Shown here piece by piece: positions 5,007 through 49,543 of a stretch of DNA of 59,148 nt; the first letter of the stretch is position 1, and each line of letters opens with the position of its first letter. The DNA comes from an uncultured Clostridia bacterium (lineage in GTDB: Bacteria; Bacillota; Clostridia; TANB77; CAG-508), in assembly GCA_947623725.1 (NCBI GenBank), contig CANQHI010000005.1:1-59148 (forward strand), in the 5' to 3' direction. Made by a program: the position numbers and the translations under genes. The notes below the pieces were generated by a model. The model did no database searches, was not told where the DNA came from, and was given only the letters and a program-made list of their open reading frames with translations.

Positions 5007-5706
5007 TTATGCTTCTTCGATTTGCCCGTTATTTTCTTCACTTGCACTTTCATCATTATTTTCATTAACTAATTCTAAACTTGCTATTGATACTTCATAT
5101 GCAACTCTTTGTTCTACTGTTCCATCTTCATGCTTTTTCTCATAATTTCTAGATTGAACTCTACCTATTATTTTTACTTCTGTTCCAACTTCCATTTTTG
5201 AACAAAATCTTGCATTTCTACCCCATGCAATACATGGAATATAATCTGATTTATTATATGCTCTATTTACTGCAAGTAAAATATCTGCAATTTCTCTTCC
5301 GAAAGGGAGTTTGTCTGTAAATAGGAGTTTTACATATATATCCTATTAAAGTTACTTCATTTGATATAAAGTCTTTGCTTGCAACAACTTCTTCGTCTTG
5401 ATTTTCTAAAAATTCAATGTCTTTTGCAAATACTGTTAAAATCAATCTATTTTTTTCTTTTTCATAACTATTGTATGATCTAAATTGACCTTTTACTTTT
5501 ACTTTTTTATCAACTACTAATTCATCTTCTTTAAATAATCTTTCAGAAATTGTAATTGGTATAATATCTGCATTTCCACTAAGTCTTGGTACACTTAAAT
5601 TAAATGTAAAAAATTTTTCTCCATATATTTCATGACTAAATACTTTTTCATCTGTTATTTTTCCTACTAATACTAAATTGTTATTCTCTAAATAATTTGT
5701 TTCCAA
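5007..5706 (-). pseudogene. SSB-family protein with two OB-fold halves, reading frame broken by 1 nt near 5299-5301
   Basis: ORFs 5263..5706 and 5007..5195 join when one base is removed at TTT-CGG-AAG. The product then reads ...YRQTPF(G/R)REIADILLAVNRAYNKSDYIPCIAWGRNARFCSKMEVGTEVKIIGRVQSRNYEKK..., which is SSB/OB-like. Confidence 0.7.
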
Positions 5707-5862
5707 TTTGTTTTCCTCCTTAAATTTTTGTTCTTGTGTATCTCTTTATTTTTATACGCTAATTATTATTATACAATAAAATTTTAATTTTGTCTACATA
5801 AAAAGTTGATTTTCTTCTTATTTTTGTAAAAATTTTGTAATATTTCTAAAATTTTCTATATT

Positions 5863-6156
5863 TTAATCAACTTTATTTTCATTATTATCCCTTGTATTAA
5901 CAACATTTGAGCTTTCTGTCTTAACATAATTTTCTTGTGCATTTGGATTTAATCCAGAATCTGTATCTAATATTTGTGTATTTTGATTCATTTCAACTGA
6001 ACTTTCTACACTATTCGATAAAATTGTATTTGCTGAAGTCTTTAAAATTTCGTCATTTTTTTTAGTTATGGCAAATGATAGCACAAAAAGTAATGCTACT
6101 GTACTTAATGAAATTAAATAAGATAATATCTTCTCTTTATTAAAAACCATAAACAT
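5863..6156 (-). CDS. Small hypothetical membrane-anchored protein
   Basis: Start MFMVFNKEK preceded by GGAGGTAATTTT. One N-terminal TM segment. Confidence 0.5.
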   Translation of the reverse strand: MFMVFNKEKILSYLISLSTVALLFVLSFAITKKNDEILKTSANTILSNSVESSVEMNQNTQILDTDSGLNPNAQENYVKTESSNVVNTRDNNENKVD

Positions 6157-6234
6157 AAAATTACCTCCAACTAATGTATTTATATTCATATTAATTGGAG
6201 AATATTACTTTGTATAAAATAATTCTATTTTAAA

Positions 6235-6372
6235 TTATATTAAACCCATTTTTTTCATCATTTTCTTTCCTTGTTTTACCATTTTATTTGATCCCATTGA
6301 ACATTCTGCATAGATCATAGCTGCTCCTGCTGTTATTACCATTCCAGTTATCATTCCTTTAACAAATTTCAT
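6235..6372 (-). CDS. 45-aa hypothetical small protein, not in the supplied ORF track
   Basis: GGAGGTAATAATT precedes the ATG. Translation is MKFVKGMITGMVITAGAAMIYAECSMGSNKMVKQGKKMMKKMGLI. Hand-translated. Confidence 0.35.
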   Translation of the reverse strand: MKFVKGMITGMVITAGAAMIYAECSMGSNKMVKQGKKMMKKMGLI

Positions 6373-6457
6373 AATTATTACCTCCTTAAATTTTTAATTT
6401 GCTTTTCATAGATTAACAACAAATGATTAATTATCATTCAGATATTTTCTTCTATTA

Positions 6458-6826
6458 TTATGTGTGTTTTACATATTTTCTATACCAAAAAATTATTTCA
6501 TAAATTGCAATTATTATTAAAAAAATTGCAAATGCTTTTCTTAAAAAACTTAAATTTATTTTATTTGCAATATTTGATCCACATATTGCACCTATTATTC
6601 CTGAGATTGCAAGTGGTATTGCTATTTTCCAATTTAATTTTTTATTCTTTATATTTATAATAGTAGCTATTATTGATGTTGGAATAAAAAATATTATGTT
6701 GCTAGATTGAGCAATTAATTGATTAACATTCATAAAACAAGTTAAAAATGTAATAAGTATAGTTCCTCCTCCCATTCCCATACCACTTACTATGCCTGAT
6801 ATTATTCCTATCAAAATTATTATCAT
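6458..6826 (-). CDS. TauE/SafE (TSUP) family membrane protein, second-half module only
   Basis: 122 aa and 4 TM, with the GMGMGGGTILITFL motif. Its ATG overlaps the stop of the preceding half (ATGA). Confidence 0.65.
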   Translation of the reverse strand: MIIILIGIISGIVSGMGMGGGTILITFLTCFMNVNQLIAQSSNIIFFIPTSIIATIINIKNKKLNWKIAIPLAISGIIGAICGSNIANKINLSFLRKAFAIFLIIIAIYEIIFWYRKYVKHT

Positions 6827-7255
6827 TTATTAAATATTAGAATAGCTGAATAAATTAAAAAAATTATAAAAATTAATACTAAATATTTATCATTTATTTT
6901 TTTTAAAATATTTGCTCCAAGCCAGCCTCCTATTAAACCTCCTATTCCACTTAATACGCCTAATCTCAAATCTACATTTCCTGCTCTTTTATAAAAAATC
7001 ATACCTGCTAACACCATTGGCAAAATACAAAAAATCGCAATTGCTCTTGCTTCTTTTTCTTCTGTATGAATTAAATAAACTAAGCCGTGGCACAGCTATT
7101 AAGCCTCCTCCTGAAGCAAATAAACCACTTAAAAATCCTGTACATATTCCTAGCAAAATGATTTTTATTTTTGTTCTTTTATCTAATTTTTGATCTTTTT
7201 TCATATTTTTATTTTTTTCATTTAGTTTATTTTTATACAATAAATTTGTTTTCAT
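6823..7255 (-). pseudogene. TauE/SafE (TSUP) family first-half module, frame broken near 7085-7087
   Basis: ORFs 6989..7255 and 6823..7023 join if one base is removed at CCA-CGG-CTT. The product then reads SGGGLIAVP(G/R)LVYLIHTEEKEARAIAIFCILPMVLAGMIFY. Confidence 0.65.
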
Positions 7256-7308
7256 TTTTTATTGTTTTAAATATTTTTTAACATTAATAAAATTTTCAAT
7301 TTCTATAG

Positions 7309-7334
7309 TAAAAAGTCGGCCTAAAACCGACTTA
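7309..7334 (-). terminator. Rho-independent terminator after pilin-like gene 1
   Basis: The minus strand reads AAGTCGG-ttttagg-CCGACTT followed by TTTT. Confidence 0.65.
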
Positions 7335-7352
7335 AAAACTTAATATAAATTA

Positions 7353-8792
7353 TTAATTGCTTTCTAATAAAGCATGATACTCTGTTGATTTTTTGTAGTT
7401 TGCTTCAACTTCTTTTTCAGACAATCCTTTACTATATAGCCTTAATGCATAACAGTTTAATTTTGAATAATTCCATGCATAATTTTCGTATTCTTCATTA
7501 ATCCTTCCAATTGTAAAACAATTAAAAGAATTTAAAAGTTCATTTGTGAAAATATCCCATTGTACTTTATTAAAATCTGCATCATACACTTTCTTACCAT
7601 TTATGTAACATTTATAACTGTAAAATTCTCCACTTTTATTAAAACTTGATCCATCACTATAAACCCCATTTTCACTATTCTTATTTTGACTCTTTGAAGT
7701 GTCCAATGTAATCGTTATGTAACAAGGTTTATTAGGCTCAAATTCAGTTTCTGATAAACTATTAACTACATTCCACTGGTACGATTTATGACAATAGTCA
7801 GACAATTCTCTACACTGTTTATATCCACCATTAACAGACCATTCTATACCTGGATTACTTGCATTTCCATTATTATGAACAATCCCAAATCTAAACCATG
7901 ACCACTCATTACTATCTTTAATTCCATAATAGAATAAACCATTACAATATCCATTAAACTTTTCATTATTAGAAATCCAATAATTATTTCCTAGGTTCCA
8001 ACTTCCATAAAATTCAAATGTAAATCCTTGTTTTGACAATGCCTCTTTTTGTTCTTGTTTATCATATTGTATTGTAATATAATCATCAACTCCATCAAAA
8101 TTAAATGATGTACTTGTTAATCCACTTTCATTTGTTCCTTCTTCACTAAAGTTATGTAATTCTACTCCTGTCCCTAATTGTTTCTCAATATCTTCTTTAC
8201 TTTGTCCTGTTCCTTTATCTATTATTGATGAATCTATATTTATTATTAAATTATCTTTTACTGCTAGCATATCTCCTGCTGACCATGATTTATATTTTCC
8301 TTCTTCTAATTGAATTATTTCTCCTGTTTCATAATTTACTAGCCAATTATAATTTGCATTTCCATATCCACTTAATTCTGTTCCTTTTTCTACATAATAC
8401 CAACCATTGTCATATTGTTTTCCAGTATTTTCTACTTTTACTATATGCCAATTATATGAATTTTCTATGTTTTTTTCTTTTAACTCATCTCCTAATCTTT
8501 CCGAGCTTACATTTTCTAAATATTTACCTAATTGTACCGAGATTACATTTTGTCCTAAATATTCTCTTTCACTCTCTAAATTATACTTTTCTACTGTTGT
8601 TTTTGCTCTTTTAAACAATCCATTTTGGCTTAAAGCTGTAGTTAAAGTTACTCCTGTTAATATTAAGAGTATTATTATCGTTATTACTAATGCTACCAAG
8701 GTGATTCCACATTCTTTATAATTTACTTTTCTCATTATTTTTTGCTTTCTTACTGATTCTTTTTTTATAAACTTTATTTTTTTATTCATCAT
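7353..8792 (-). CDS. Pilin-like-anchored protein, paralog 1, with a LamG/concanavalin-like C-terminal region
   Basis: N-terminus is ...RKVNYKECGITLVALVITIIILLILTGVTLTTALSQNGLFKRAK. It resembles a class III (prepilin) signal but has Ala, not Glu, at +5. FNFDGVDDYITI is a typical LamG-like motif. Start chosen at the ATG at 8792 after AAAAGGAGATTTT. Confidence 0.7.
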   Translation of the reverse strand: MMNKKIKFIKKESVRKQKIMRKVNYKECGITLVALVITIIILLILTGVTLTTALSQNGLFKRAKTTVEKYNLESEREYLGQNVISVQLGKYLENVSSERLGDELKEKNIENSYNWHIVKVENTGKQYDNGWYYVEKGTELSGYGNANYNWLVNYETGEIIQLEEGKYKSWSAGDMLAVKDNLIINIDSSIIDKGTGQSKEDIEKQLGTGVELHNFSEEGTNESGLTSTSFNFDGVDDYITIQYDKQEQKEALSKQGFTFEFYGSWNLGNNYWISNNEKFNGYCNGLFYYGIKDSNEWSWFRFGIVHNNGNASNPGIEWSVNGGYKQCRELSDYCHKSYQWNVVNSLSETEFEPNKPCYITITLDTSKSQNKNSENGVYSDGSSFNKSGEFYSYKCYINGKKVYDADFNKVQWDIFTNELLNSFNCFTIGRINEEYENYAWNYSKLNCYALRLYSKGLSEKEVEANYKKSTEYHALLESN

Positions 8793-8842
8793 AAAATCTC
8801 CTTTTATTATCAATACTTTACAAGTAATTTTATACACAAATT

Positions 8843-9039
8843 TTTTTATTAATTAAAAAGCTTAATAAAAAAACTATAAATCTTATAACTCAACTTTTTC
8901 AATGAGTTTATAAAATTTATAGTTTTTTATTTGTTATTAAATTGTAATAATTTTATTTTTCTAAAATCTTGTTAAAATATTATATTTATGATAAATTTTA
9001 TTTATATTCATTTTTATTAAGCTTTTTAATTAATTATAA
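8843..9039. promoter_or_regulatory. Putative invertible segment (switch L1) bounded by inverted arm-core-arm sites
   Basis: Site 8843-8871 is TTTTTATTAA/TTAAAAAGC/TTAATAAAAA. Site 9011-9039 is TTTTTATTAA/GCTTTTTAA/TTAATTATAA. They form a 24-nt perfect inverted repeat. The interior holds hairpin 8868-8928 and the promoter-like TTGTTA-17-TAAATT (8969-8997, + strand). Confidence 0.55.
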
Positions 9040-9065
9040 TATATTTATTTATCTATTTTTATCAA

Positions 9066-10320
9066 TTAATTATCTACTACTAGCTTAAAACTAACAACAC
9101 CATCTGTTTCATTTTTTTCTAATCTATAACCACTTGATGTCAAATCAATAGAAACCATTGGTCGAAGTGAATTTTGTGCACCAACTTCATATCCGATGTG
9201 CAGTACATACATTCGCACCTGCAACTCGATATGCATCAGTAAAATAGAATACAGCTTGTAATCCAAAGTCACAATTATCATCATATAAATGAACATAACG
9301 CCCTGCCAAGTAATAACTAACACCAAAATAATCTAAACCATCCTCTTTTTTTAATAACAAATCATAATATTTAGGATTTATAAATTCACTTTGTCTATTA
9401 AGATAATCATGTCCATAGAATGATTCTCTAAATGTTAAATTACTATTTCCCGTTTCATTATTAGTTTTATATCCATTCTCTTGTTCCCACATCAGGCATT
9501 CTTTATCACTTCCATTCTCTGTACCATCAACCTCATTATATTCATACATCCATTTTGAATCATATTCTTCCCACATTTTAGGATATTTTAGACTTGTATA
9601 TGTTGTTTTACTTCCTCCAAAATGCATCTTTCCTTCATCATTTTCAAACCAACCACTAGGATCATACTTATATTTTCTATAATCATAATTGCTTACCTTT
9701 TGTATATCACTTCTTCTTAAATTTGCTACACTTATTCCATTTTTCATTTTACCATTTTCATCATATTGTCCATAACATTGTCTACATATCTCATTTATTG
9801 CCCATACGCCATTATTATATCCTGTTGCTCCTCTTAATGTTAAGGTTTCATTTGTTGGTCTACTTGATATTAATCTTATTGTCTTTGTATATTTATTATA
9901 ATCCCAGATTCTCCAATCCAAGTCTTCTGTTGTAAATTTTTGATCTCCATTTTCTTCTGCATTTACAATTGTATTACCATCATTATCTTGTTGTGAAGTT
10001 AATCCTGATGTTATACTTTTTATTATAAATGAACTGGTATCATTTTTTTCTATTGGTTCATATCCTTCTACATAACATCCTACATAGTCATTATAATCTA
10101 TTGATATCTCATCTAACTCTTCTGCTATACTATCCAATGCTAATTGTTCTTGTTTTTCTGACTCTTGATATTCTTTTACTGCCTTTTTTGCCATTTTAAA
10201 CAATCCATTTTGCCCTAATGCTGTAGTTAAAGTTACTCCTGCTAGAATCAATAATAATATTATTGTTATTACCAAAGCTACCAATGTAATACCTTTTTCT
10301 TTATAATTTACTTTTCTCAT
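9066..10320 (-). pseudogene. Pilin-like-anchored protein, paralog 2, frame broken near 9193-9195
   Basis: Same N-terminus (MRKVNYKEKGITLVALVITIILLLILAGVTLTTALGQNGLF). Frame A stops at 9187. Frame B (9066..9326) supplies the family C-terminus ...NSLRPMVSIDLTSSGYRLEK..., which matches paralog 3. Removing one base at CAT-CGG-ATA joins them. Confidence 0.7.
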
Positions 10321-10346
10321 CCTTTGCACCTCTAACTTCATTAATT

Positions 10347-10567
10347 TTTTTATTAATCTAAAAACTTAATAAAAAAAATAATTAAACATTTATAGACCTT
10401 GTATTATAGATTCGAAGCTAGAATCCAGTTAAATTTTTTATAAAAATTTAACTAAAATTTTGGTCAATAAAGTTTAATTATTTTTTATTTTATACTTGTT
10501 TAAATATTTATGTTATGATAATATTCTTATATATAAAATTTTTATTAAGTTTTTAGATTAATAATTT
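10347..10567. promoter_or_regulatory. Putative invertible segment (switch L2)
   Basis: Site 10347-10375 is TTTTTATTAA/TCTAAAAAC/TTAATAAAAA. Site 10539-10567 is TTTTTATTAA/GTTTTTAGA/TTAATAATTT. They form a 26-nt perfect inverted repeat. Promoter-like TTGTTT-17-TAATAT with TGn lies at 10496-10524 (+). Confidence 0.55.
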
Positions 10568-10968
10568 TATGGTGCCGGATTAATTTTTATTTCTTTAGGC
10601 TTTATTTTTTTTACATTTTTAGATAATTCATATGTTTGATTCTCATTCCATCTCATAACTTTTATATTTTTATAAATATCAAGTACTTCTTGATACTTAT
10701 CGCGTTCTTCTTCCCAAACTGAATCTGGAATTTTATCAAAAGCATCAAACATTTTTTCAGCTTCTGCTAAATATATCACTTGTTCTTGTGGAGACATTTT
10801 GTCATATTTTTTTGCAAATTCTGCAAGATTATCTAGACTAGCATTTGCTTTAATAAATGTAAAAAAATCTTTAACTTTAATGCCAGCCATTTGTATTTGC
10901 ATAACAGCCATTACAATTAAAATAACTATGAAAATTAATAATAAAAATATTATTGCTAAAATAGTCAT
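10567..10968 (-). CDS. Hypothetical N-terminally anchored protein
   Basis: 133-aa ORF with a hydrophobic N-terminus. No recognisable family. Confidence 0.5.
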   Translation of the reverse strand: MTILAIIFLLLIFIVILIVMAVMQIQMAGIKVKDFFTFIKANASLDNLAEFAKKYDKMSPQEQVIYLAEAEKMFDAFDKIPDSVWEEERDKYQEVLDIYKNIKVMRWNENQTYELSKNVKKIKPKEIKINPAP

Positions 10969-11064
10969 TTATCTTTTGTTACTCCTCACATTCAAAATTA
11001 TACAAATTTATTATAGCATTAGATTAATTTAATAGCAAGTATTTTTTCTTTACTCATAAATGAC

Positions 11065-11092
11065 AGAAAAGGCACCACCTATTAGTGATGCC
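11065..11092 (-). terminator. Probable terminator after the lipoprotein gene
   Basis: Minus strand has GGCATCACT-aatag-GGTGGTGCC (with G-U pairs) followed by TTTTC. Confidence 0.45.
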
Positions 11093-11123
11093 TCTTCCTT
11101 TTTTATGCACTTTGAAAAAAATA

Positions 11124-12026
11124 TTATACTTCATTTGCTTCTTCATAATACCTTACAATTGATGTCAAATATCCGTCGTATGTTCTTCCTTCTTCCTCCA
11201 CACTATTATATATTTGGGTTGAATATAATATTCCTTCTTCTTCATCTATCCAACACTGCTTAACATGTTCATCTACAAATTGTATATCCGACATGTTATA
11301 ATCTTTAAAAACGTATAACTCTCCCGGATCAGTTCTTTCTAAAGATGAATGATATTGTAAAAATAGTCCATCATGCACATCATCATATAATAGTAAAAGG
11401 TATGCTAAATCTGTTGGATCATAATTATAGCCTAAATCTTTTATTTTTTCTGGAATTAATTCATTTCCTTGTAAATCAATCCTTTCTCCTCTTAAATATT
11501 TCACTAACTTACAATTCTGTATTATATATGTCCCTTCGCCTGGAATATATTGATAATTTTTTGAATTTATATTATTTTCATTATTTGAAAAAAAATCCAT
11601 ATCACTTGGTAAATCCAAATTATCCTTGTTATAGTAATTTCCATCAATCAATATATATCCACATAATACTTCATCAGATGCTTCTAACTCAATAGTATGT
11701 TTTTTATATATAGTTTTCTTACCATCCCATTTGCCAGACATATACAGTTCTTTTACTTCATCGTAAATTTCTTTAAAAGGAGTTTTTACTCCGCTACTTT
11801 CTCCATCTACAAATATCACTCCTTTACTACATGTTATTTTATTCAGACCGATATGTTTAACAACATCATGTTCGTCACCTTCTGACACATTTTCAAAATA
11901 TGCAGAAGCTTCTTGTGCAATGGAGACAATATCTTTTTCATTTTCAGTCTCGGATTCGCTTTGTGAAGTGCAGGCTGTTAAAATACAAGCCAAGATAATA
12001 AAACTTAGAAGTAATCTCTTTTTCAT
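11124..12026 (-). CDS. Hypothetical lipoprotein
   Basis: MKKRLLLSFIILACILTAC contains a lipobox (LTAC). The ATG at 12026 is preceded by AAAGGAGAGCAACAAA. Confidence 0.65.
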   Translation of the reverse strand: MKKRLLLSFIILACILTACTSQSESETENEKDIVSIAQEASAYFENVSEGDEHDVVKHIGLNKITCSKGVIFVDGESSGVKTPFKEIYDEVKELYMSGKWDGKKTIYKKHTIELEASDEVLCGYILIDGNYYNKDNLDLPSDMDFFSNNENNINSKNYQYIPGEGTYIIQNCKLVKYLRGERIDLQGNELIPEKIKDLGYNYDPTDLAYLLLLYDDVHDGLFLQYHSSLERTDPGELYVFKDYNMSDIQFVDEHVKQCWIDEEEGILYSTQIYNSVEEEGRTYDGYLTSIVRYYEEANEV

Positions 12027-12254
12027 TTTGTTGCTCTCCTTTTTTGTATTTATTTTTTCAATGTGCATTTTTAGATACTATCCTTAACATATCAAGAATA
12101 GCCTCTAATTTAATGTTTCAAAAAACACTATAATATATTATACTAAAAATTTACTTGTTAGTCAAATATTATGTTAATCTAATATTTTTTCTAAAAATTA
12201 AATATTTTCGAAAAATAATGAGCTAAAAATATAATTTTTAACTCATCATTTTTA

Positions 12255-20385: not shown

Positions 20386-21204
20386 TTAATAACTTGTCCA
20401 ATAATAATATAAAATATTATTATCTATATCATAAACTCCTATTTCCCATCCGGTTGCTTCTTCATCTGTAAAATGATGTTTTTTATATTCATCACTTGTT
20501 CTGCACACTTTTTCATAGTGATAATATCCATTTTCTATTGAAAGTACTTCTTCATTGTATTCAAAATCATCTAATTTTTCATCTTCTAGTCTATTCTTGT
20601 TCCACTTTGGACTTTGTTCTAATGTTTTTATTACTTCTTTTCCTTGTTCATCTGTAAATTGATATGTATAATAATCTAAACCATCACCCTGAGGACCACC
20701 TCTTACACTATATATTTCTCTTGTTTTATAATTATTTGTTTTTATACCTAAAATCTCACTATAATTTTTATGATGATTAAAAGGACCATTTTCAAAATAA
20801 TATAGTTTTGCATTTTTTAAATCAAATATGGCATATCCCTTCTCATAATAATATAAATCTTCTCTATCTATTTCTACTACATAATCATCTCTAATTTCAT
20901 AAAACTCCTTCATTATATATTCATAATATTTATTTTTACTCCATATATCACTATTTTCTAATTGTTTTCTAAAAGTATCCATACTATCACTATAATAGTT
21001 TTTTATTTTATATACCTTATATTTTCCAAACCTGTCAAAACCATATTTCGTACAATATTCTATATTAATATCTTCTATTTGTAATCCCAAGTTTTTATAA
21101 TCTGTGTCACCTTTTATTTTATAAAAAAATATAGATAAATGAGAAATAATTATAACAATTATAATTATTAATAATATATATATAATTATCTTTTTATTTT
21201 TCAT
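20386..21204 (-). CDS. Hypothetical N-terminally anchored protein
   Basis: 272-aa ORF with one TM. Tyr/Glu/Lys-rich with no recognisable domain. Confidence 0.5.
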   Translation of the reverse strand: MKNKKIIIYILLIIIIVIIISHLSIFFYKIKGDTDYKNLGLQIEDINIEYCTKYGFDRFGKYKVYKIKNYYSDSMDTFRKQLENSDIWSKNKYYEYIMKEFYEIRDDYVVEIDREDLYYYEKGYAIFDLKNAKLYYFENGPFNHHKNYSEILGIKTNNYKTREIYSVRGGPQGDGLDYYTYQFTDEQGKEVIKTLEQSPKWNKNRLEDEKLDDFEYNEEVLSIENGYYHYEKVCRTSDEYKKHHFTDEEATGWEIGVYDIDNNILYYYWTSY

Positions 21205-21230
21205 ATTTTCTCCTTGTTTAATAAAAGTTA

Positions 21231-22304
21231 TTATTTTATTACAAAATTATTCTTTTGTACTTTTATTGTAACTTTATATGACTTTATAACTCCATATTTA
21301 CTAGAAACAACTCCAAAATTGTTTAGTATGCTTGAAAATATACTAATTAGTAATGATTTATTAGATGTTACATATTCTTTTAAATCTGTAAAATCTGTAA
21401 AATCATAAGTATCTTCAATTACCATATTTACTTTCCAAGTATTATCTAAGTTTTTTTCAATTTCTATACTTGTTGGAGAACCATGTATAGCAAATAATAA
21501 ATCTTTATTATTAAATTCAATTATACAATCTTCATTATTTTCACTATTATCCTTAAATTTATCTTTTTCACTACAATATTTTTTTATAAGTTCTTTTATT
21601 TTATTATCAAATTCTTCACTTTCTAGTATATCTTCAATAACTTCTTTATCATTAATCAATAAATCTTGTGGTTGCTTTCCAAATAAAGATAATGAATGCG
21701 ATAATAATTTAGCTGAAAGTTTCATATTTGCTAATAATCCTCCAACAACCACAACTTGCCAAAATGTATATTGCATTGCATAAAAAACGGTATAAGCAAT
21801 AGGAGAGTTTTTCTTAGTTAAATCAAATATAAAACTCATACTTTTTATAAAGTTCTCTGCTACATCTTTATCTACTTCTTCCCAATTAGTTTTTTTAGCT
21901 TCTTTTAATAATTCATTAAATTTTTGTGTATAATTAAACAATTTGTATATTTCATTTAGTGAAAACGACATCGTCTCTATTATATTTTTTGAAAAAGTTT
22001 TGATATTTTTTATATCATTAGAAACTTTTTCTTTTACATCATTTAAAGCTTCATAGTTCATCATGTTTAGATACGTTAATGCAATATATTTTTGAGCTAA
22101 AACATATTTTTTCTTTTTACTAAGAAAAAACTTATGATTTTTCCATGCTATTCTAGTACATAAATACAATTCTTTATTCCATATTATTCTAGGTGATTTA
22201 GCAAATCCCAATAATTCATATAAATTATCTAGGCATCCTCTTCCAAACATTTCATATTTATAATTATATGGTCTATTACATAATAAACATCTTTTTTCTT
22301 CCAT
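21231..22304 (-). CDS. Hypothetical protein
   Basis: 357-aa ORF with an N-terminal CLLCNRP...GRGC motif. No family recognised. Confidence 0.5.
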   Translation of the reverse strand: MEEKRCLLCNRPYNYKYEMFGRGCLDNLYELLGFAKSPRIIWNKELYLCTRIAWKNHKFFLSKKKKYVLAQKYIALTYLNMMNYEALNDVKEKVSNDIKNIKTFSKNIIETMSFSLNEIYKLFNYTQKFNELLKEAKKTNWEEVDKDVAENFIKSMSFIFDLTKKNSPIAYTVFYAMQYTFWQVVVVGGLLANMKLSAKLLSHSLSLFGKQPQDLLINDKEVIEDILESEEFDNKIKELIKKYCSEKDKFKDNSENNEDCIIEFNNKDLLFAIHGSPTSIEIEKNLDNTWKVNMVIEDTYDFTDFTDLKEYVTSNKSLLISIFSSILNNFGVVSSKYGVIKSYKVTIKVQKNNFVIK

Positions 22305-24259: not shown

Positions 24260-25189
24260 TTAAGCTAAAATTTTTGCTTCAATATTTCTAATTTTATATT
24301 TTCCATTTTCTTCAATAAAATCATATAAGCTTTTATCTAAGCTGTCACTGTTTTGTTTTAAATCAGTTGTATAATAAAAATTAATTTTGTCTATTTTTAC
24401 GCCATTTGTAACTAAAGCTTTAAAAGTTTCTGCCATGTGTCTTTCATCTTCACATATAAAAACAAGTTGTGGTATCGAAATGAAATCTGAATCTCCAGGA
24501 TTAAAATTATCATAAAAATCTTTCCATAAATTCATTCTTTCGACTAATCTTTTTTCCCAATTTTCATTTCTTCTAACTACTTCATATACAAAACTTATTT
24601 TTCTATTATTTGCAACTAAATCAATACTTAATGTAGGTTTAAACTGTTTACTAAGAGTTTTTGCTTGAATTACTGGTTTTAGTTTATAATCTGAAAAAGT
24701 TTTTACTTTTCTCATATATGCAATAACTAATTGATTTCCAGCAAGTTTTTTCTTTATCATTTCAACAGGTTTTGCATTATCACTTGGTTGCCATTTGCAT
24801 TCTACCTCTCTTGATGTAAGCAAATATTTTCCCATCTTCTCCATGCAGTAAACTCTATATATTCCACTTCCTTCTGGTGATGTAAAATAATATCTTGTAA
24901 GTATTTTGCTTCTAATTAATTGGTCTAATTTATTGTTTAATTTATCTTGAGTTTTTATATCTGCTTTTTGAAGTTGTAATAATTGAAACATTTGTCTTGA
25001 TGTTAAAAATTCAAATTTATTTATTAATTCTAAAATTTGAAAATGTATTTCATTTATATGTCCTACATTTATCTTCTGTATAATCTGATTCATTGAGACA
25101 TAACCGTCTTTTCCATCAAATACTTTTATCTCCCCTTCTCTCATTCTAAAAGGTGAGACTGTTGTTTTAATTTCATTATCTGCTAACAT
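24260..25189 (-). CDS. Replication-relaxation family protein (plasmid/ICE-type)
   Basis: 309-aa ORF whose N-terminal winged-helix-like region and overall pattern resemble the replication-relaxation family. ATG follows AGGAGGAAAAA. Confidence 0.55.
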   Translation of the reverse strand: MLADNEIKTTVSPFRMREGEIKVFDGKDGYVSMNQIIQKINVGHINEIHFQILELINKFEFLTSRQMFQLLQLQKADIKTQDKLNNKLDQLIRSKILTRYYFTSPEGSGIYRVYCMEKMGKYLLTSREVECKWQPSDNAKPVEMIKKKLAGNQLVIAYMRKVKTFSDYKLKPVIQAKTLSKQFKPTLSIDLVANNRKISFVYEVVRRNENWEKRLVERMNLWKDFYDNFNPGDSDFISIPQLVFICEDERHMAETFKALVTNGVKIDKINFYYTTDLKQNSDSLDKSLYDFIEENGKYKIRNIEAKILA

Positions 25190-29181: not shown

Positions 29182-31023
29182 TTAACTTTGTTCTTCTGCT
29201 AATCTTTCATATATAATAAAATTTGAATCACTATATAATTCTTTATATTTTTCATCTCTAGATAAAAGCATTTTTAATTTTGAATTTACTTTGCATATAA
29301 TATGTGTTACTCCGTATGTTTCAAATTTTGTATCATAATAAGTTGTTATACTTGATACATTTATGAAATCTGTAAATATATCTTGTCCTTCATATTTTCC
29401 ATTTTCTTTATTATAAGTACCATTAAATTCTGGAGTATACAAGTCACATCTAGAATCTATGAATACTGGTACATCATTTAAAAGTATGTAACTACCATAA
29501 TTATAATCATTAAACAATTTTATGTTTTTGTAATCTAAGTTTTCTTTTATCCAATTAACCGCATCTACCGGATATGTACTAGTACTAATATATGAGGCTC
29601 TTGAATTTTTTGTATATAAGTTTAAGCTTATCATCAATACAATTGCAATAGCCACTATTTCCCCAACTATACTAGTTGAATATTTCATAAAATCTTCAGT
29701 GCCTTGCTTATCATACATATCGATTAAGTTTGTTAGCATTTCGCCAACAACCATTCCTCCAAATAACACTAGCATTGAAACTTGTCTTCTTGTCATTAAT
29801 GCAAGTAAAGTTAACCCACCAAGGAAAAATATATCTCTTAATTTTAATTTAATTTTTGTAAACATTGCCATTGCAATTGTTATTGCCAATGTTATCAATA
29901 TAGGAATATTTTCGATTAATGTTAGTGGTAAATGTTCATTTACACTTTTAGTTGTATTTCCTTGCATTATTCTATATGTATAAGTGTAAGGCATATCTTT
30001 TATTGGTGTAAGAAGTCCTGTAAATAAGCAAATTACCATAATAACAAATAATTTTAAAGTATTATGATTTTTTTCTAATACAATCTTATATGGTTTCTTT
30101 CTTCTTTCATTTTGTTTTATTAAATCTGATTCAAAAATAGAATTTGATTTTTCTAACAATTTATTTAATTTTTGTAATTGAGCTTGATATTTTTCTACTT
30201 TATTTTTCTGTGCTTTCTTTAATTTTTGATTTGTTTCTTTTATTCTTTCTTTTATCCACCATTGATACACTTTATGTGGAATATGCCAGTCTAATATTAC
30301 TGCAATCACATATTCTGCTAAGAATGGTAAATATAATACAAAGTAAAATGGGAATACTGCGGCATGCACATTTGCAATAATTATCGGAATAACAATCAGC
30401 CCAATAGCATATCGCAACTTTGGTTTTTCTAAATATTTTACAATTAATAAAATTGTTGCAACAAATAATATAAATGTCACTAGCTGAGCTCTTGCTGCAA
30501 TATATTCTCTCATGAGTTCCATTTGTCCTAAGGTTAAAACTGCGGACACTACTGGATTTTTACACATTTTCTTATTAGTAAAATATAATAAAATACCTAA
30601 AATTATTGTTAAAATAATTGTAGAAATATATATACCTGTATATCCACCCATAAAATCAAAGATAAGTGAAATTATTATATCATATAGCCAGTGAGGATAC
30701 ATATATGGCAAGTTTTCAATCCATGAAAAATGGTCTTTATAATCTATGCCATTTTCCCTAATTAGTTGCCCTGTTTTTATTGTATAAAAAGTATCATTTT
30801 GTAAACTCTTTGGCACTATTGAAATACAGAATATTGTTATACAAAATACCGCTAAAATATTAAATGCTAAATGTAATGATTTTCTTTCTTTATCTGTTAA
30901 TTTTTTTTCTTTTGTATTTTTCTTTAAAGTACTCTCAATCATATTATTTTTTATCTCTGATTTTTCTGCTTCTTTTGTATTCTCTTCCTTTTTTAAAGAA
31001 TTATTTTTTTTCGGTTTAAACAT
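29182..31023 (-). CDS. Large polytopic membrane protein of unknown function
   Basis: 613 aa with many TM segments, an internal charged coiled-coil-like insertion and a soluble C-terminal domain. Confidence 0.55.
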   Translation of the reverse strand: MFKPKKNNSLKKEENTKEAEKSEIKNNMIESTLKKNTKEKKLTDKERKSLHLAFNILAVFCITIFCISIVPKSLQNDTFYTIKTGQLIRENGIDYKDHFSWIENLPYMYPHWLYDIIISLIFDFMGGYTGIYISTIILTIILGILLYFTNKKMCKNPVVSAVLTLGQMELMREYIAARAQLVTFILFVATILLIVKYLEKPKLRYAIGLIVIPIIIANVHAAVFPFYFVLYLPFLAEYVIAVILDWHIPHKVYQWWIKERIKETNQKLKKAQKNKVEKYQAQLQKLNKLLEKSNSIFESDLIKQNERRKKPYKIVLEKNHNTLKLFVIMVICLFTGLLTPIKDMPYTYTYRIMQGNTTKSVNEHLPLTLIENIPILITLAITIAMAMFTKIKLKLRDIFFLGGLTLLALMTRRQVSMLVLFGGMVVGEMLTNLIDMYDKQGTEDFMKYSTSIVGEIVAIAIVLMISLNLYTKNSRASYISTSTYPVDAVNWIKENLDYKNIKLFNDYNYGSYILLNDVPVFIDSRCDLYTPEFNGTYNKENGKYEGQDIFTDFINVSSITTYYDTKFETYGVTHIICKVNSKLKMLLSRDEKYKELYSDSNFIIYERLAEEQS

Positions 31024-33455: not shown

Positions 33456-33725
33456 AAGCTTATTTCCTTGTAAATTAATATTTAGGTTTTTGCTTTAAGG
33501 ATTTGCCTATAAACCATATCTTTATATCATTTAAAAAATGATGCTTTTGTTAAGTTATTTATTTCCGTAAGAATTAATGTATACATTATACAACATAAAT
33601 ACATAAAAATCCATACATTTTAGTGAAATATTATTACTATAATGTTACATTTTTTTAATCTAGCTGTTATATTATTTTTCAATTTATAGTGTATAATGTA
33701 TAGTGTTAAACAAAGGAGAATGTTA

Positions 33726-34820
33726 ATGGATTCAGTTAACCAAGAACTTGAAAAAAGTGGAATTCAAGTAATTTGCCCTATAAACATTATTAATGTAAAC
33801 GAGATTTCAACGTATATTTCTCGCTTACTTTGTTCAAAATTTCCAGACTTTAATTTAAACTATAATGATATGTTTATACGCATTTCAAAACTTAACATGT
33901 ATATTGCAGATATGCCTTTTGGTATGTCTGATGCTTGTTATTTTTACAAGAATCAGAGTATCTACTTTAGAAAAGGGCTTAGTTTTGATGATATAAAAAG
34001 ACTTGCTTTTCATGAGATAGTCCATCATTTCCAAGAAGTTAAGGATTCAAATGGTAATTTACACAAATTAGGTTTATGCACATATTTAAAGCTAAAGTCT
34101 TACGGATTAGCTCTAAATGAAGCTTCTGTTCAACTTATGTCTTCATTTGCAACTGGAGAAAAGCGTGATATTGTTACATACTACGGAATTACTTTACCAA
34201 CTGACAGTCCATCTTACTACCCAATCCTTTGTAATTTAATAAAACAAATTGGATACTTAACTGGTTTTGCTTGTTTATTTAATAGTACATTTTTTTCTAA
34301 TGATAAATTTTTTGATAGATTTAAAGCTTTATTTGGCGAAAAAAATGCATTTATTATTCAGCAAAATTTTGAAAAACTACATGACATAGAAGGAAAAATC
34401 ATTAAGATAAATACAAAAATTCAAACTACTGATATGTCTTATCATAAATTTAAAAATTCGACTGATACTATAAATGGCTATAAAGAACAAATAAGAAAAA
34501 CTTTCTTTGATACGCAAAATTTGATTATTACTTCATATTTCGATGCGAGAATGCGTGAATTATCTAGTGTTGATGCTATTCAAGAATTCAGAAAACGTTT
34601 GTCAAGTTTTAGTAACTTAATTGGTACAAGTGAAAATTATACATTTTTTAACGACTATTATTTAAAGAAAATGGTAGAAGTTGATAAAAAATACGAAGAA
34701 ATTACAAGTGGAGAAAATAATACTCTTATTGTTGTAAAAAAATCTATGTTTTCTACTCTTTTCAGTGCTTTGAAAAAAATATTTATGCATAATCAAGAAG
34801 AACTTGAAAGTGATAATTAA
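33726..34820 (+). CDS. Hypothetical protein with an HExxH metalloprotease-like motif
   Basis: FHEIVHHFQ. The ATG at 33726 lies 8 nt after AAAGGAG. Confidence 0.5.
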   Translation: MDSVNQELEKSGIQVICPINIINVNEISTYISRLLCSKFPDFNLNYNDMFIRISKLNMYIADMPFGMSDACYFYKNQSIYFRKGLSFDDIKRLAFHEIVHHFQEVKDSNGNLHKLGLCTYLKLKSYGLALNEASVQLMSSFATGEKRDIVTYYGITLPTDSPSYYPILCNLIKQIGYLTGFACLFNSTFFSNDKFFDRFKALFGEKNAFIIQQNFEKLHDIEGKIIKINTKIQTTDMSYHKFKNSTDTINGYKEQIRKTFFDTQNLIITSYFDARMRELSSVDAIQEFRKRLSSFSNLIGTSENYTFFNDYYLKKMVEVDKKYEEITSGENNTLIVVKKSMFSTLFSALKKIFMHNQEELESDN

Positions 34821-36202: not shown

Positions 36203-36317
36203 GTTAGTTCTCCTTTTTTTTATTTTTTACTTTTGTTTTATTTTATATACCTTAATTTGAAATTTTTATATTATGCATTGAATTATAATATTATGTTATA
36301 TTATTTCATTTGAAATA

Positions 36318-36346
36318 ATTTTATCAATACTAAAGTATTAAGTCAA
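36318..36346 (-). promoter_or_regulatory. Promoter-like element between switch L3 and gene 3
   Basis: The minus strand has TTGACT, a 17-nt spacer and TAAAAT with an upstream TGn. The same block is conserved at 58850-58878. Confidence 0.45.
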
Positions 36347-36372
36347 TATTAAACAAGACTTTACTTCTATAC

Positions 36373-36569
36373 TTTTTATTAAGTAATAAACTTAATAAAA
36401 AAGCTATAAATTTTATAATCCATATATTTCAACGAATTAATAAGATTCATAACTTTTATTTTTTACTAATTTGTAATAATTTTCTTTATCTATATTATTG
36501 CTTAACTGCTTATATTTATTATATAAATTTATTTATACTATTTTTATTAAGTTTATTACTTAATTATTT
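36373..36569. promoter_or_regulatory. Putative invertible segment (switch L3)
   Basis: Site 36373-36401 is TTTTTATTAA/GTAATAAAC/TTAATAAAAA. Site 36541-36569 is TTTTTATTAA/GTTTATTAC/TTAATTATTT. They form a 24-nt perfect inverted repeat. Promoter-like TTGCTT-18-TATAAA lies at 36498-36527 (+). Confidence 0.55.
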
Positions 36570-36786
36570 TTTTCTGTAATTTTTGTTACTTAAAATTAAA
36601 TTCTAATCTTGTTTTCAGTAAAAAAATCAAATTATACTTTAAAACTTAAAAATTATATCAAATTGATATAATTATTTTTTTTATTTAACATTTATCTGTA
36701 TATTTTTTCTTAATTTGGAAATATTAACTATAAAATTGTTTAGAAGTACTTACATCTTCTAAAAAAGAAAGGATTTTAGTTTTATT

Positions 36787-36999
36787 ATGGGTATTGAAAA
36801 ACATATTCAAGTTACAGGTAAATCAACTGTTTCATGGAAGGACGCAATTGTTCAAACTGTTGAGGAGGTATCAAAAACAATTAATTTTGTAACATCAATT
36901 AAGATTCTTGAACAACGTGCAAAAATAACCGTAAATAAAATAACTGAATACTATGTTGATTTAGATATTACATTTATGGTTGAACAAAAAAATTCATAA
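36787..36999 (+). CDS. Dodecin-family protein
   Basis: 70 aa. KHIQVTGKSTVSWKDAIVQTVEEVSKT...ITEYYVDLDITF matches the dodecin pattern. Confidence 0.7.
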   Translation: MGIEKHIQVTGKSTVSWKDAIVQTVEEVSKTINFVTSIKILEQRAKITVNKITEYYVDLDITFMVEQKNS

Positions 37000-37040
37000 T
37001 TTATTTTACAAAACATTATGAGAAAGGAGATAAATATACT

Positions 37041-46193: not shown

Positions 46194-47921
46194 CTAATCT
46201 CCACAATAAATTGGTAATCCTAGATTTGAATATATTGCATAATATTCTCCTAAAAATTTAACATCATTATATTCTAATTCATAAGTACATTCTTTCACAA
46301 CATTTCCACTTAAATCAAGAACCCCCCATTTACCGTCTTTTTTTACACCAACATTATTTCCATTTTGCTCAGTAACAAAATCATATTGATAATCTACTAT
46401 AACATTACCATCGCTGTCTTTGAATCCCCACTTATCATTTTGTTTTGTAGCATATATTGTGTTATTTGGAAATAAATTTTTATATGTTGTTTCATCTCCA
46501 TCTAAAGTAAAATACTTGATAGCTTTATCTGAAATAATTTCTAAATAATTTTCTTCTTGTATTATAGTTCCATTCTCTAACCCTTCTTGTATTTCACCTT
46601 TACTATTAATTATAGTATTTTTGTTATCATCTAAATTCATTGCTTGTAGGCAATTAGTTCCATCTATTTTTTGAATTGTATTATATTCTAAAGGAACTAC
46701 ATTTGATCCATCTGCTTTTATAAGTCCTGTTTTTGATTCATTCGTCGCAATAAATAAATCATCTCTAAAATATTCAATATATGAATAATTAGTATTTAAT
46801 AATTTATTGTTGTCATTGTCCATAATATTATAATTATCATCTTTATCAATTATTATGCTATATTTATCTGAAACTTTTTCTTTGCTTGTATCTTCAGTAT
46901 CTATAGTGTTTCCGGTTTTATCAAATATTATTGTATTTTCTTCTTTTATTGCATTAATATATTCTCCACCAATTATAATTGTATCATAATCAATTGGAAT
47001 AATATTTTTTCCATTTATATCAAAAACACCTTGTGAAGAGTCTTTTTGAACAATTATTACTTCATTTGTTTTATCATAATCAATATTTATATATTCATTT
47101 TCTAAAATAGTTTTATTATTCTTTAAAAGTCCATATCTACCATTTAATGATGTTATGAAATATACATCTTTAGTATTTTCGATTTCTGTTATTCTATTTA
47201 CTTCATTGTAAATCGGCTCTAAAACTATTTTTCCTGATGTTGTAGCATATCCAAATTTATATCCATCATCAGTTTTTATTCTTAGTATAAATCCTGCTTC
47301 AGAATATTTTGTTTTCTCATCATAATATCCGTCAGATAATATATTTTCATATTCTTCGTCTAATATTTTTTGTCCTTTAATATCTATAACTCCATAGTTT
47401 TCTTCTTTTTTAACTTTTAAATATCCTTCTTTATAATCTATATTCACTATTTCTTCATATTCTGCTTCTGTGATTTTATTTCCTTCATAATCCATTATTC
47501 CATATAAGTTACCTTCTTGATATTTAAGAACAGTCTTTTCATAAGGTACTAAGCTTGTGATTGTTTTAAGAGAAATAGCATCTACACTAGTATAGTTTGT
47601 CCATAATTTTTCATTATTTATATCTACTGCATTCCATATGTCATTATCATTATCCACTAAACAAACAAAGACTTCTTTAGTTGGATTAGGAATTTTTAGT
47701 CCATCATATTGTGGTTCAATTACGACTTGTCCATTTGCGTCAATTACTCCAAACTTATTATCTTTTTGTAAAATAAAATATTTTGCATCTTTTGCTTCTA
47801 TTTCTTCAAGTTTTAAAGTGTGTTTTGAATTCATTCCTAGAGTTATACCTACTATTACTCCTATCACTAATAAAATTAATATTACTATAATCAATATTTT
47901 TTTATTATTATTTTTTAGCAT
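46194..47921 (-). CDS. WG-repeat (KWG-type) protein with an N-terminal anchor
   Basis: Repeated xKFGVIDxxGxxVIEPxYD and KWGFKDSDGNVIV units. One N-terminal TM. Confidence 0.75.
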   Translation of the reverse strand: MLKNNNKKILIIVILILLVIGVIVGITLGMNSKHTLKLEEIEAKDAKYFILQKDNKFGVIDANGQVVIEPQYDGLKIPNPTKEVFVCLVDNDNDIWNAVDINNEKLWTNYTSVDAISLKTITSLVPYEKTVLKYQEGNLYGIMDYEGNKITEAEYEEIVNIDYKEGYLKVKKEENYGVIDIKGQKILDEEYENILSDGYYDEKTKYSEAGFILRIKTDDGYKFGYATTSGKIVLEPIYNEVNRITEIENTKDVYFITSLNGRYGLLKNNKTILENEYINIDYDKTNEVIIVQKDSSQGVFDINGKNIIPIDYDTIIIGGEYINAIKEENTIIFDKTGNTIDTEDTSKEKVSDKYSIIIDKDDNYNIMDNDNNKLLNTNYSYIEYFRDDLFIATNESKTGLIKADGSNVVPLEYNTIQKIDGTNCLQAMNLDDNKNTIINSKGEIQEGLENGTIIQEENYLEIISDKAIKYFTLDGDETTYKNLFPNNTIYATKQNDKWGFKDSDGNVIVDYQYDFVTEQNGNNVGVKKDGKWGVLDLSGNVVKECTYELEYNDVKFLGEYYAIYSNLGLPIYCGD

Positions 47922-48066
47922 TTATACTTTCTCCTCGCATAATATGTTTAATATAGATTTTATAAACATATTCTTTCTTAATATATTTTTTAAGTTAATT
48001 AACATTTTGCCTCATTTTATTCAATTAACTTTTAATTTTGATATAACTATTATAGACACAAACGCC

Positions 48067-48636
48067 TTATATGTCAATTATTTTTTTCGCACAGATATAT
48101 CTTAATTTATTATCTAAATCTTTTATGTATGTAAATAATTTTAAATATTGTTCATAGTTATTATTAACTTTTATAATATTTTTTAAACTAGTTTTTTCTA
48201 TTATTTTGTTTGAAATAACTTTATATACTCGTCTTTCATTATTAACAGTATAAACAATTTTTTCACCTAGTTCTATATCCTTTAAATTCGCAAAATAATT
48301 ATTCTTATGTCCATAATTGTAAGCTATTAAAGCAACATTGTTTCCCATAATATTACTTTCCTTAAAGTGACCTATATATCCGTCATCAGGTATATCTTCA
48401 TTCATCTGCTTAATATTGGCCTCAAGTTTTATACTATCTATCTGTAATGTCCATTCCTTTATATCATTAATATTAGGCTCAGATATGCTATTTTCTATAT
48501 TATTTTCTTCCGAGATTAATTCACTTGTTTCAATAGTTTTCATTGAGAAATTTATAAAAAAAATTATGATTATAAAGATTATTGAAGAAATTAATACTGA
48601 TAAAATATTTACATTGAATTTATTAAAATTAATCAT
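48067..48636 (-). CDS. Sortase-like protein lacking the canonical TLxTC cysteine
   Basis: N-terminal TM, then W.L.I..I.L.A.I, ...GH..., FANL..IELGEKIVY...YKV, and LKLFTY where sortases have LTLxTC. An Arg lies 9 residues downstream. Confidence 0.55.
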   Translation of the reverse strand: MINFNKFNVNILSVLISSIIFIIIIFFINFSMKTIETSELISEENNIENSISEPNINDIKEWTLQIDSIKLEANIKQMNEDIPDDGYIGHFKESNIMGNNVALIAYNYGHKNNYFANLKDIELGEKIVYTVNNERRVYKVISNKIIEKTSLKNIIKVNNNYEQYLKLFTYIKDLDNKLRYICAKKIIDI

Positions 48637-48703
48637 ATAAATATTTTACCAGTATTTTACAATTTTGTAAATAGATTTTATTATTTTTTATTTGAAATTA
48701 ATA

Positions 48704-49543
48704 TTAATCTATTAGCTTTTTTAATTCATTTTCCTCTATTCCAACTAATTCTGATATATAACTAATATCTTTTCCTTCTTTAATTAATTTTTTTGCTATT
48801 TCTAACTTTCCTTTTTTATAACCATATAGTTCTATTGAATGTTCATCTCTTATTGCTTTTTCTCTTAAAAATTGCAATCTCTCCATCTTCTCATCTTCAC
48901 TTAATTCTTTTACTGTTATTACACATTTTTCTATTTCTTTATTTTCTTTCATTATCTCCTTAACCTCCTTTGAGTTCGGATTATCTAGAAATAGCATCCA
49001 TTGTGCTTTCTTATTTTTCTTGTCTTTTTCATACTCTTTGAGTGCTTTCCTTAAATTTATTATATTTATTTCTATTAGCTCTGTCAATATCTTTTCACGA
49101 TTTTTCGTCTCTATTAGTTTCCACTTTGTTTCCATTTCATCTATATCTTTTAGTTCTTCTATTTCAAAATCTATTATTGCTATTAATACTGTCCTTTTTA
49201 CATTTTCATATGGCTCTCCTCTTTTAAATTGATCTGAATACAGTCTTGTTGCATAATATAATATTCTCTCTATAAAATTTCCTTTATTTAATAATTGTAC
49301 TTCTACATCTACTTTCTCTTTATTATTAATTTCCAGTTCTAAGTCTAATATTCCTAATTTATCATTCGGTCTATTTCTTATTAATTCTTTATCTTCATTT
49401 ATTTTTATACTTTCTATTTTTTCTTCTAATAGTACTTCTGCAAATGCTTTCGTTATTTCTGGATTGTTTTTACTAAATAAACTTTGAAAAACAACATCTA
49501 TCTTTGGTATTAATAAATTATTTTTTCCATTTGTCATAGGCAT
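48704..49543 (-). CDS. Rpn/YhgA-like PD-(D/E)XK nuclease family protein (putative transposase-like)
   Basis: IPKIDVVFQSLF...LGILDLELE...VDVEVQL...YYATRLY pattern. Confidence 0.7.
   Translation of the reverse strand: MPMTNGKNNLLIPKIDVVFQSLFSKNNPEITKAFAEVLLEEKIESIKINEDKELIRNRPNDKLGILDLELEINNKEKVDVEVQLLNKGNFIERILYYATRLYSDQFKRGEPYENVKRTVLIAIIDFEIEELKDIDEMETKWKLIETKNREKILTELIEINIINLRKALKEYEKDKKNKKAQWMLFLDNPNSKEVKEIMKENKEIEKCVITVKELSEDEKMERLQFLREKAIRDEHSIELYGYKKGKLEIAKKLIKEGKDISYISELVGIEENELKKLID

Follow-up and report, generated by a model that had tools for sequence, protein, structure and literature searches.

Candidate modular type IV pilins, each behind a putative invertible promoter, in an uncultured Clostridia bacterium

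In the proteins PilB and PilC of Streptococcus sanguinis, a ligand-binding module (a vWA module in PilB, an Ig-like and a ConA-like lectin module in PilC) is grafted onto a pilin-type N-terminus; both have been placed at the pilus tip and act as adhesins, and modular pilins with a ConA-like module are established (PMC9934059, PMC8179133). More than 1,200 modular pilins were collected by Raynaud et al. by means of the InterPro pilin signature (PMC8179133), and minor pilins without Glu5, such as those of the GspK/PilX type and S. sanguinis PilA, are thought to cap the fibre (PMC9934059). Site-specific inversion varies the binding module of a minor pilin in the IncI1/IncI2 shufflon, where the Rci recombinase acts on PilV of the thin type IVb pilus (PMC5430464, PMC9045228), and so yields populations of mixed specificity. 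In invertons, such as E. coli fimS, the RecV-dependent switches of C. difficile and the capsule and fimbrial promoters of Bacteroides, a promoter segment bounded by inverted repeats lies upstream of a surface-structure gene, and the numerous loci of this kind in one genome are believed to be served by a common recombinase whose gene lies at a distance. Here we analyse a stretch of 59,148 nucleotides of contig CANQHI010000005.1 (assembly GCA_947623725.1, an uncultured Clostridia bacterium), which we call the window, and in it four genes, P1 to P4, that resemble each of these systems in part: their products have a pilin-type N-terminus followed by different C-terminal parts, and each gene lies behind a promoter segment enclosed by inverted sites.

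In our view P1 to P4 probably code for modular pilins that belong to a divergent type IV pilus of Clostridia, one in which no pilin has Glu5, each gene being under its own invertible cassette. This interpretation is built on several observations: the N-terminus that the four proteins have in common, the operon in which it occurs in relatives, the folds, the architecture of the sites, the association of sites with the family and the presence of both orientations among related loci. The window, from a low-GC, spore-forming gut bacterium, has a G+C content of ~26%, and the four open reading frames (ORFs) that carry the N-terminal motif are scattered over it, all on the minus strand:

P1, 7353-8792, minus strand: modular pilin-like protein of 479 residues in the database gene call; the mechanical ORF extends to 8837.
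P2, 9066-10341, minus strand: P3-type gene with a frame break; main ORF 9187-10341, start likely at 10320.
P3, 34910-36202, minus strand: intact modular pilin-like protein of 430 residues, with a 24-residue leader, a pilin-type N-terminus and a domain of ~335 residues.
P4, 57800-58792, minus strand: modular pilin-like protein of 330 residues, with a 10-residue leader, a pilin-type N-terminus, a Pro-rich linker and a C-terminal module.

The N-terminal ~45 residues of the four proteins are nearly identical and their C-termini differ: counted along the first sequence, 31 of its 45 N-terminal positions do not vary in the alignment, while full-length identity is only 24-33%. The 5' coding DNA of the four genes is also closely alignable, which agrees with the initial annotation, whose coordinates spanned P1 and P2 only, in its description of a four-gene family alike at the DNA and protein level. 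All four proteins have K-E-(K/C)-G and then ITL(V/I)ALVITII(I/L)LLIL(A/T)G, that is, a short basic leader, Gly at -1 and ~20 hydrophobic residues. P1 has a basic leader of 29 residues with Cys-Gly at its end; ITLVALVITIIILLIL comes next, then the long alpha-1 helix, and beyond it a small beta domain and the jelly-roll module of ConA/LamG type. A linker between N-terminus and module had been noticed earlier, and the segment after the hydrophobic stretch is indeed predicted to be helical (residues 11-70 in P1 and 23-87 in P3). By the usual criteria for a pilin signal this N-terminus is borderline, with Ala at +5 and scores against Pfam N_methyl (PF07963) below the gathering cut-off. N_methyl is matched by 34 of 77 P3 homologues at E<0.01, and a profile of the P3 family gives weak matches only in the PDB, to the N-termini of MshA and PilA.

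The resemblance to class III prepilins suggested by the initial annotation gains a context in related genomes. A scan of one genome per species gave 80 loci, nearly all from metagenome-assembled genomes (MAGs) of uncultured Clostridia from rabbit gut; these loci hold 101 motif-bearing ORFs with 28 to 750 residues past the motif, at least 15 family loci occur in a single MAG, and P3 as the only query retrieved more than 3,800 proteins, all without a name or a Pfam domain. In five related MAGs (loci L058, L069, L071, L075 and L078), the same N-terminus stands on a 76-residue pilin encoded in an operon with the order pilM/N-like, pilO-like, a gene of unknown function, the short pilin, pilD, two minor pilin-like genes, pilB, pilT and pilC, with Pfam matches to A24_N_bact (1e-30), T2SSE (2e-101 and 5e-42) and T2SSF (3e-27). 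The short pilin gene lies directly upstream of pilD, and five such short ORFs have 68-76 residues past the motif. The N-terminus of the operon pilin reads KG, then ITL(V/I)ALVVTIIILLILAGV...NG(L/I); in the short pilin MFKKENG is followed by ITLVALVVTIIILLILAGVTLSIALQDGGL, and the match to the family begins at the end of the leader and takes in the entire helix. Of the two minor pilin-like genes, the one at 7554-8000 of L069 likewise starts with KG and then ITLIAL. Aligned in this way, the family proteins look like the helix of the operon pilin with extra domains attached. Three of the five operon-bearing MAGs also have family members, two of them switch-bearing ones, and on one contig (L010/L075) a P3-type gene lies ~1.7 kb downstream of pilC. 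The operon's PilD (L069, 6335-7129, with homologues at the other four loci) retains the first of the catalytic Asp residues (IDxEH) along with a Cys-rich A24 domain at its N-terminus, and shows an invariant Asp188 in a K-x-D-Y context. The unusual Ile at +1 and Ala at +5, pointed out at the outset as departures from the prepilin consensus, are real and are a property of the whole related pilus system; because the operon short pilin has the same N-terminus, they represent the normal pilin signal of this lineage's pilus and give no reason against reading the family as pilins.

The modules carried by this common stem differ in kind. The AlphaFold2 (AF2) model of P1 (pLDDT 88.8) consists of a long helix, a small beta domain (~residues 97-168) and a jelly roll. 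Foldseek gave 193 PDB matches to it at E<=0.001, led by CBM40 and the lectin-like domains of BoNT/TeNT Hc, the best being the sialic-acid-binding CBM40 of NanA (4c1w, 5e-7); S. sanguinis PilC (7oa7/7oa8) was matched at 2.5e-6 over 364-421 aligned columns. Pfam gave no match on P1 itself and PF13385 on two distant homologues. Together, the structure search on the model and this Pfam family confirm the predicted ConA/LamG lectin-like jelly roll, which the initial annotation had recognized as a LamG-like module; given the CBM40 and PilC matches, sialylated glycans would be plausible ligands of it. The AF2 model of P3 is of similar quality (pLDDT 88.1, pTM 0.80), and its domain has no PDB or BFVD match with E<0.1; none of 77 P3 homologues has a C-terminal Pfam match, DUF6273 included. 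In the models of both P1 and P3, alpha-1 leads directly into the extra domains. For the C-terminal 260 residues of P4, 91 representative homologues were obtained; PF19789 (DUF6273) is matched by 10 of 33 aligned homologues (best 1.3e-8) and not by P4 itself, which suggests that the P4 module is distantly related to DUF6273, a C-type-lectin-like domain of phage receptor-binding proteins and of target proteins of diversity-generating retroelements (DGRs; PMC10743442). Across the family, the C-terminal parts of 82 ORFs cluster into 14 groups, several of which represent different types of module.

P2, P3 and P4 had further been said to share an end motif. The literal motif is there, and P2 and P3 are full-length homologues; P4, however, shares only the N-terminus with them, and a common module is not established. 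Profile-profile alignment of the P3 and P4 families (hhalign) aligned the N-terminus and nothing more, so the YWL...RPxxSI motif is no proof of a module common to the two. Homology of the P3 and P4 modules was rejected on this result, a seven-step BLAST chain between them being too weak. The idea that the end motif YWL...RPV marks a C-type-lectin or DUF1566-like fold was likewise dropped for P3, which has no PDB, BFVD or Pfam match of that kind, and is kept for P4 only, via DUF6273.

The initial annotation had given P1 and P2, which lie in tandem, a switch each; a putative switch precedes every one of the four genes. Upstream of each of P1 to P4 stand two inverted, dyad-symmetric sites of 29 bp, 119-163 bp apart, with the layout TTTTTATTAAK, 7 nt, MTTAATAAAA (half-site, 7-bp spacer, half-site). 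For a 28-bp pattern of the site, 17 matches were counted in the window where 1.49 would be expected; of these, 15 fall on the eight switch arms. The best matches to the pattern are the gene-proximal sites, and the outer half of every distal site is degenerate. All of the sites lie upstream of complete genes and none within a coding region:

P1 switch, 8843-9039: proximal site 8843-8871, segment 8872-9010, distal site 9011-9039.
P2 switch, 10347-10567: proximal site 10347-10375, segment 10376-10538, distal site 10539-10567; arms of 26 nt, 100% complementary.
P3 switch, 36373-36568: proximal site 36373-36401, segment 36402-36540, distal site 36541-36568.
P4 switch, 58905-59101: proximal site 58905-58933, segment 58934-59072, distal site 59073-59101.

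The enclosed segments contain promoter sequences on the plus strand that are directed away from the gene: TTGTTA-17-TAAATT with TG at 8969-8997 for P1, TTGTTT-17-TAATAT with TG at 10496-10524 for P2, and an extended -10 element, TGCTATATT, near 59047-59055 for P4. Beside the proximal site stands a hairpin with a U-run (-23.2 kcal/mol for P1, -18.2 for P3 and -22.9 for P4; weak for P2, -7.8 kcal/mol). The consensus of 49 cassettes has the same arrangement, with a promoter TTGATT-17-TATATT and an extended -10 TG near the distal site, again directed away from the gene; the best-conserved inner features of the cassettes are TTGATT-17-TGCTATATT and, beside the proximal site, the hairpin with its flanking A and T runs. 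The syntenic orthologue of P3 in a related MAG keeps the same switch and the same spacer. A scan of the window with the consensus promoter and terminator gave 19 sites against 18.4 expected and is uninformative in DNA so rich in A+T. We also considered a general rule that each switch has a unique 7-bp spacer, barring recombination between switches; it is true for the four window switches and was dropped because spacers recur among switches of related loci.

The sites are strongly tied to the gene family. A strong inverted repeat was present in 49 of 97 family upstream regions and in 5 of 1,000 random control windows, and 70 of 88 site pairs adjoin a family gene, the other 18 being at contig ends or weak chance pairs; a search with the core motif led to ~13 further family loci. 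Family members without upstream sites, which the initial annotation had set against a link between family and switch, do exist (members from distant lineages and some from the same habitat; the operon short pilin, which never has a switch; and the proteins P0054 and P0107), so that this objection holds in part. The association is one-sided: a switch points to a family gene, whereas a family gene need not have a switch.

The promoter is directed away from the gene in all four window cassettes and in 45 of 50 scored cassettes (window and related loci). At locus L038, the inner segment is the exact reverse complement of that of its paralogue L042, with the outer half-sites unchanged, so that the promoter abuts the proximal site and is directed at the gene. 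Scanning metagenomes with the bare site added 32 family genes with a switch, many of them from human gut assemblies, and here the promoter is directed away from the gene in 26 and toward it in 6 (TTGCAT-17-TATAAA with TG). With L038 this gives seven related loci in the flipped state. Among these loci L103 and L146 are one locus, as are L128 and L138, and all are flipped. A DNA pattern specific for the ON orientation had no match in metagenome contigs, and P0006, P0054 and P0107 yielded no orientation polymorphism at the same locus. As a separate observation, two metagenome contigs that encode the identical protein P0014 (L085 and L086) begin exactly at or inside the switch, which is consistent alike with assembly breaks at an invertible element and at a repeated one. 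The association of sites with the family, the enclosed promoter and the occurrence of both orientations among related loci support the earlier suggestion of a phase-variable repertoire.

The mechanism that we propose covers cleavage, incorporation into a pilus, the assignment of ON and OFF and active inversion in this genome. Each protein would consist of a stem (a basic leader ending in Gly, the hydrophobic stretch and a helix of ~60 residues) onto which a ligand-binding module is grafted. Cleavage behind the Gly would fall to a prepilin peptidase whose gene lies at another place in the genome; the pilus machinery would then use the helix to build the protein into the fibre, with the tip as the most likely position and the module displayed. 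It is the bulk of the modules, with PilB and PilC as the analogy, that suggests the tip; since the presumed major short pilin is also without Glu5, the missing Glu5 is no argument for a position at the tip. The assembled orientation would be OFF, with the promoter reading away from the gene and the hairpin before the gene blocking read-through. Inversion would turn the gene ON by bringing the promoter against the gene-proximal site, from where it would read into the gene, and by moving the hairpin to the upstream side of the promoter. A recombinase encoded outside the window may act on all cassettes, and the half-site, 7-bp spacer, half-site layout suits a tyrosine recombinase, a serine invertase also being possible. 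We propose that the recombinase flips each cassette independently and that cells would therefore display different adhesin modules.

A number of observations weigh against the interpretation of P1 to P4 as switchable modular pilins, and several of them would fit an alternative in which the N-terminus is an uncleaved signal anchor and the proteins are type II membrane-anchored surface adhesins of pilin-helix ancestry, outside pili and still under switch control. The residue at +5 is Ala, not Glu, in P1 to P4 and in the operon short pilin; the scores against N_methyl are below threshold (15.6, 18.3 and 18.5 bits, the gathering cut-off being 21.2), and P1 gave no match to this family at all. The operon's PilD lacks the GxGD motif, and its catalytic domain has no Pfam match. 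The operon link itself comes from related MAGs, not from the window's own genome; Pfam scans of 50 window ORFs detected no pilus assembly, prepilin peptidase or recombinase genes, the first two of which the initial annotation had already noted as absent, and P1 to P4 lie dispersed, with housekeeping genes around them and no pilus operon nearby. We nevertheless regard a mere signal anchor as unlikely, because the similarity to the operon pilin spans the end of the leader (KG), positions +1 to +25 and the NG(L/I)F..AK helix, and so goes beyond hydrophobicity, because a second operon protein, the minor pilin-like one, opens in the same manner, and because the arrangement of modules in the P1 model resembles that of a proven modular pilin.

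The remaining points against modular pilins under invertible control concern the switch. Some family members have ordinary promoters; both orientations were not seen at any one locus, six contigs with the identical protein P0014 all being OFF; and in the window every copy is OFF and one, P2, is broken, which leaves expression open to doubt. The inverted sites might accordingly form no working switch, as would also fit the lack of a Pfam recombinase among the window ORFs, the outcome of a crude tyrosine/serine recombinase motif search, which found nothing in the 80 genome loci and otherwise only a probable integrase in L149, the uniform orientation of one locus in six samples, and the reduction of the flipped L103/L146 and L128/L138 to one locus each. 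We consider this very unlikely, since the inner segments of L038 and L042 are exactly reverse-complemented with the outer half-sites in place, the best-conserved inner positions are promoter elements, the dyad-symmetric half-site, 7-bp spacer, half-site layout is typical of recombinase core sites, and an orthologous switch is conserved across species. We regard it as highly implausible that the genes, instead of encoding host adhesins, are what is left of phage receptor-binding proteins or of some other mobile cargo: phage receptor-binding and DGR target proteins often contain DUF6273, and the best, non-significant BFVD match of P3 is a phage DUF6273 protein, but no phage genes lie beside any of P1 to P4 (the neighbours are clpC, spoVA, sipL, leuS and similar genes), the P3 locus is syntenic in another species, and the N-terminus ties the genes to a pilus operon.

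A broader proposal can also be made, which we offer tentatively and to which we give somewhat less than an even chance. Clostridia of the mammalian gut (rabbit, human and other) would possess an unrecognised type IV pilus whose pilins are all without Glu5; its helix-only major subunit, ~66 residues after cleavage, would form a stalk common to a genome-wide set of interchangeable adhesins at the tip, for which a single MAG has at least 15 loci; every adhesin would have its own inverton, and one recombinase would serve them all.

P2 is probably a decaying copy. It is 58% identical to P3 over residues 11-367 in one frame, and residues 397-427 of P3 are matched in a different frame (tblastn of P3); the last 31 matching codons, including the LRPMVSI tail, lie at 9170-9078 within an ORF at 9066-9326, and the frame break is located between 9250 and 9170. 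A comparable break at the 3' end, within the last ~60 codons, recurs in L004 and L006, and ~13 other P3-type loci stop near query residue 350-385 with an undetectable tail; the 3' end of the P3-type family seems to have decayed repeatedly.

Breaks of other kinds were seen in related family genes. Five of them, from two MAGs (L011 at 3421, L018 at 29, L020 at 1832, L054 at 2806 and L056 at 1596), have a +1 frame break at the same codon just past the hydrophobic helix (ACA CTN CGG AA), where skipping one base restores GTVLGQNGIF with the exact spacing of the family and leads into an uninterrupted reading frame of over 300 codons. In a genome so AT-rich, CGG is likely to be rare, and these shared breaks could reflect programmed +1 frameshifting or a conserved pseudogene lineage. 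In L098, L133 (about 5486-8100) and L193, one and the same insert splits the region that codes for the N-terminus, always directly after AGIT; in L133 it contains a gene for a 417-residue tyrosine integrase-like protein and cI/Cro-like regulators. The conserved 5' coding sequence of the pilin genes appears to serve an integrative element as attachment site.

The surroundings of P1 to P4 are occupied by housekeeping and sporulation genes (spo0A, spoVAC/AD/AE, sipL, yunB, ctsR-mcsA-mcsB-clpC, leuS and ribosomal protein genes). Directly downstream of P1, a TauE/SafE-type exporter gene is split into three overlapping ORFs (6458-6826, 6823-7023 and 6989-7255) and looks frame-shifted. The region 46194-49543 encodes a 575-residue protein with WG-containing beta repeats, a sortase (48067-48636) and a PD-(D/E)XK family transposase (48704-49543); none of the four pilin-like proteins has an LPXTG-type C-terminus, and they are therefore not obvious sortase substrates. 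Sizeable ORFs at 10567-12068, 20386-22304, 24260-25189, 29182-31023 and 33696-34820 have no Pfam match at E<=1e-4; the ORFs without a match include those for a 613-residue and a 374-residue protein on either side of the P3 region. The P3 locus (36203-37040) is syntenic with L087 on contig CANPZY010000001.1 of the MAG Lapin-005__bin108, the closest identified relative of the window's organism, where a family gene, a small dodecin-like gene and spoVAC stand together.

Should the interpretation of P1 to P4 as switchable modular pilins be correct, it would explain how uncultured gut Clostridia with small genomes vary their binding specificity, by way of glycan-binding lectin modules among others, while the pilus machinery stays unchanged, and more than 3,800 unannotated proteins would join the pilin superfamily. 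Standard pilin detectors miss the family because Glu5 is absent, and it would escape the InterPro pilin-signature filter as well. The lineage would also offer a natural test of the requirement for Glu5 in the assembly of type IV filaments, and the conserved 29-bp site provides a simple probe for such loci in metagenomes. Modular pilins and invertons are each known, and we found no report of the two joined in a multi-gene repertoire of individually switched pilus adhesins: our literature search turned up no account of invertons controlling type IV pilin genes, nor of the 29-bp site, and an inverton survey without mention of pilins. Compared with S. sanguinis PilB and PilC, whose signal peptides are of the canonical kind, Glu5 included, whose pilin module is globular and whose genes lie within the pil locus and show no phase variation by inversion, the proteins described here have a pilin part that is a helix only and lacks Glu5, and their genes are scattered, present in several to many copies per genome and each preceded by a putative invertible promoter. 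Pilins of the GspK/PilX type and S. sanguinis PilA are likewise without Glu5, but in the present system the short pilin, presumed to be the major one, has Ala5 as well, and the loss is system-wide. The shufflon, finally, swaps C-terminal coding segments within one gene, whereas in P1 to P4 inversion of a promoter would switch complete genes, with no exchange of coding sequence.

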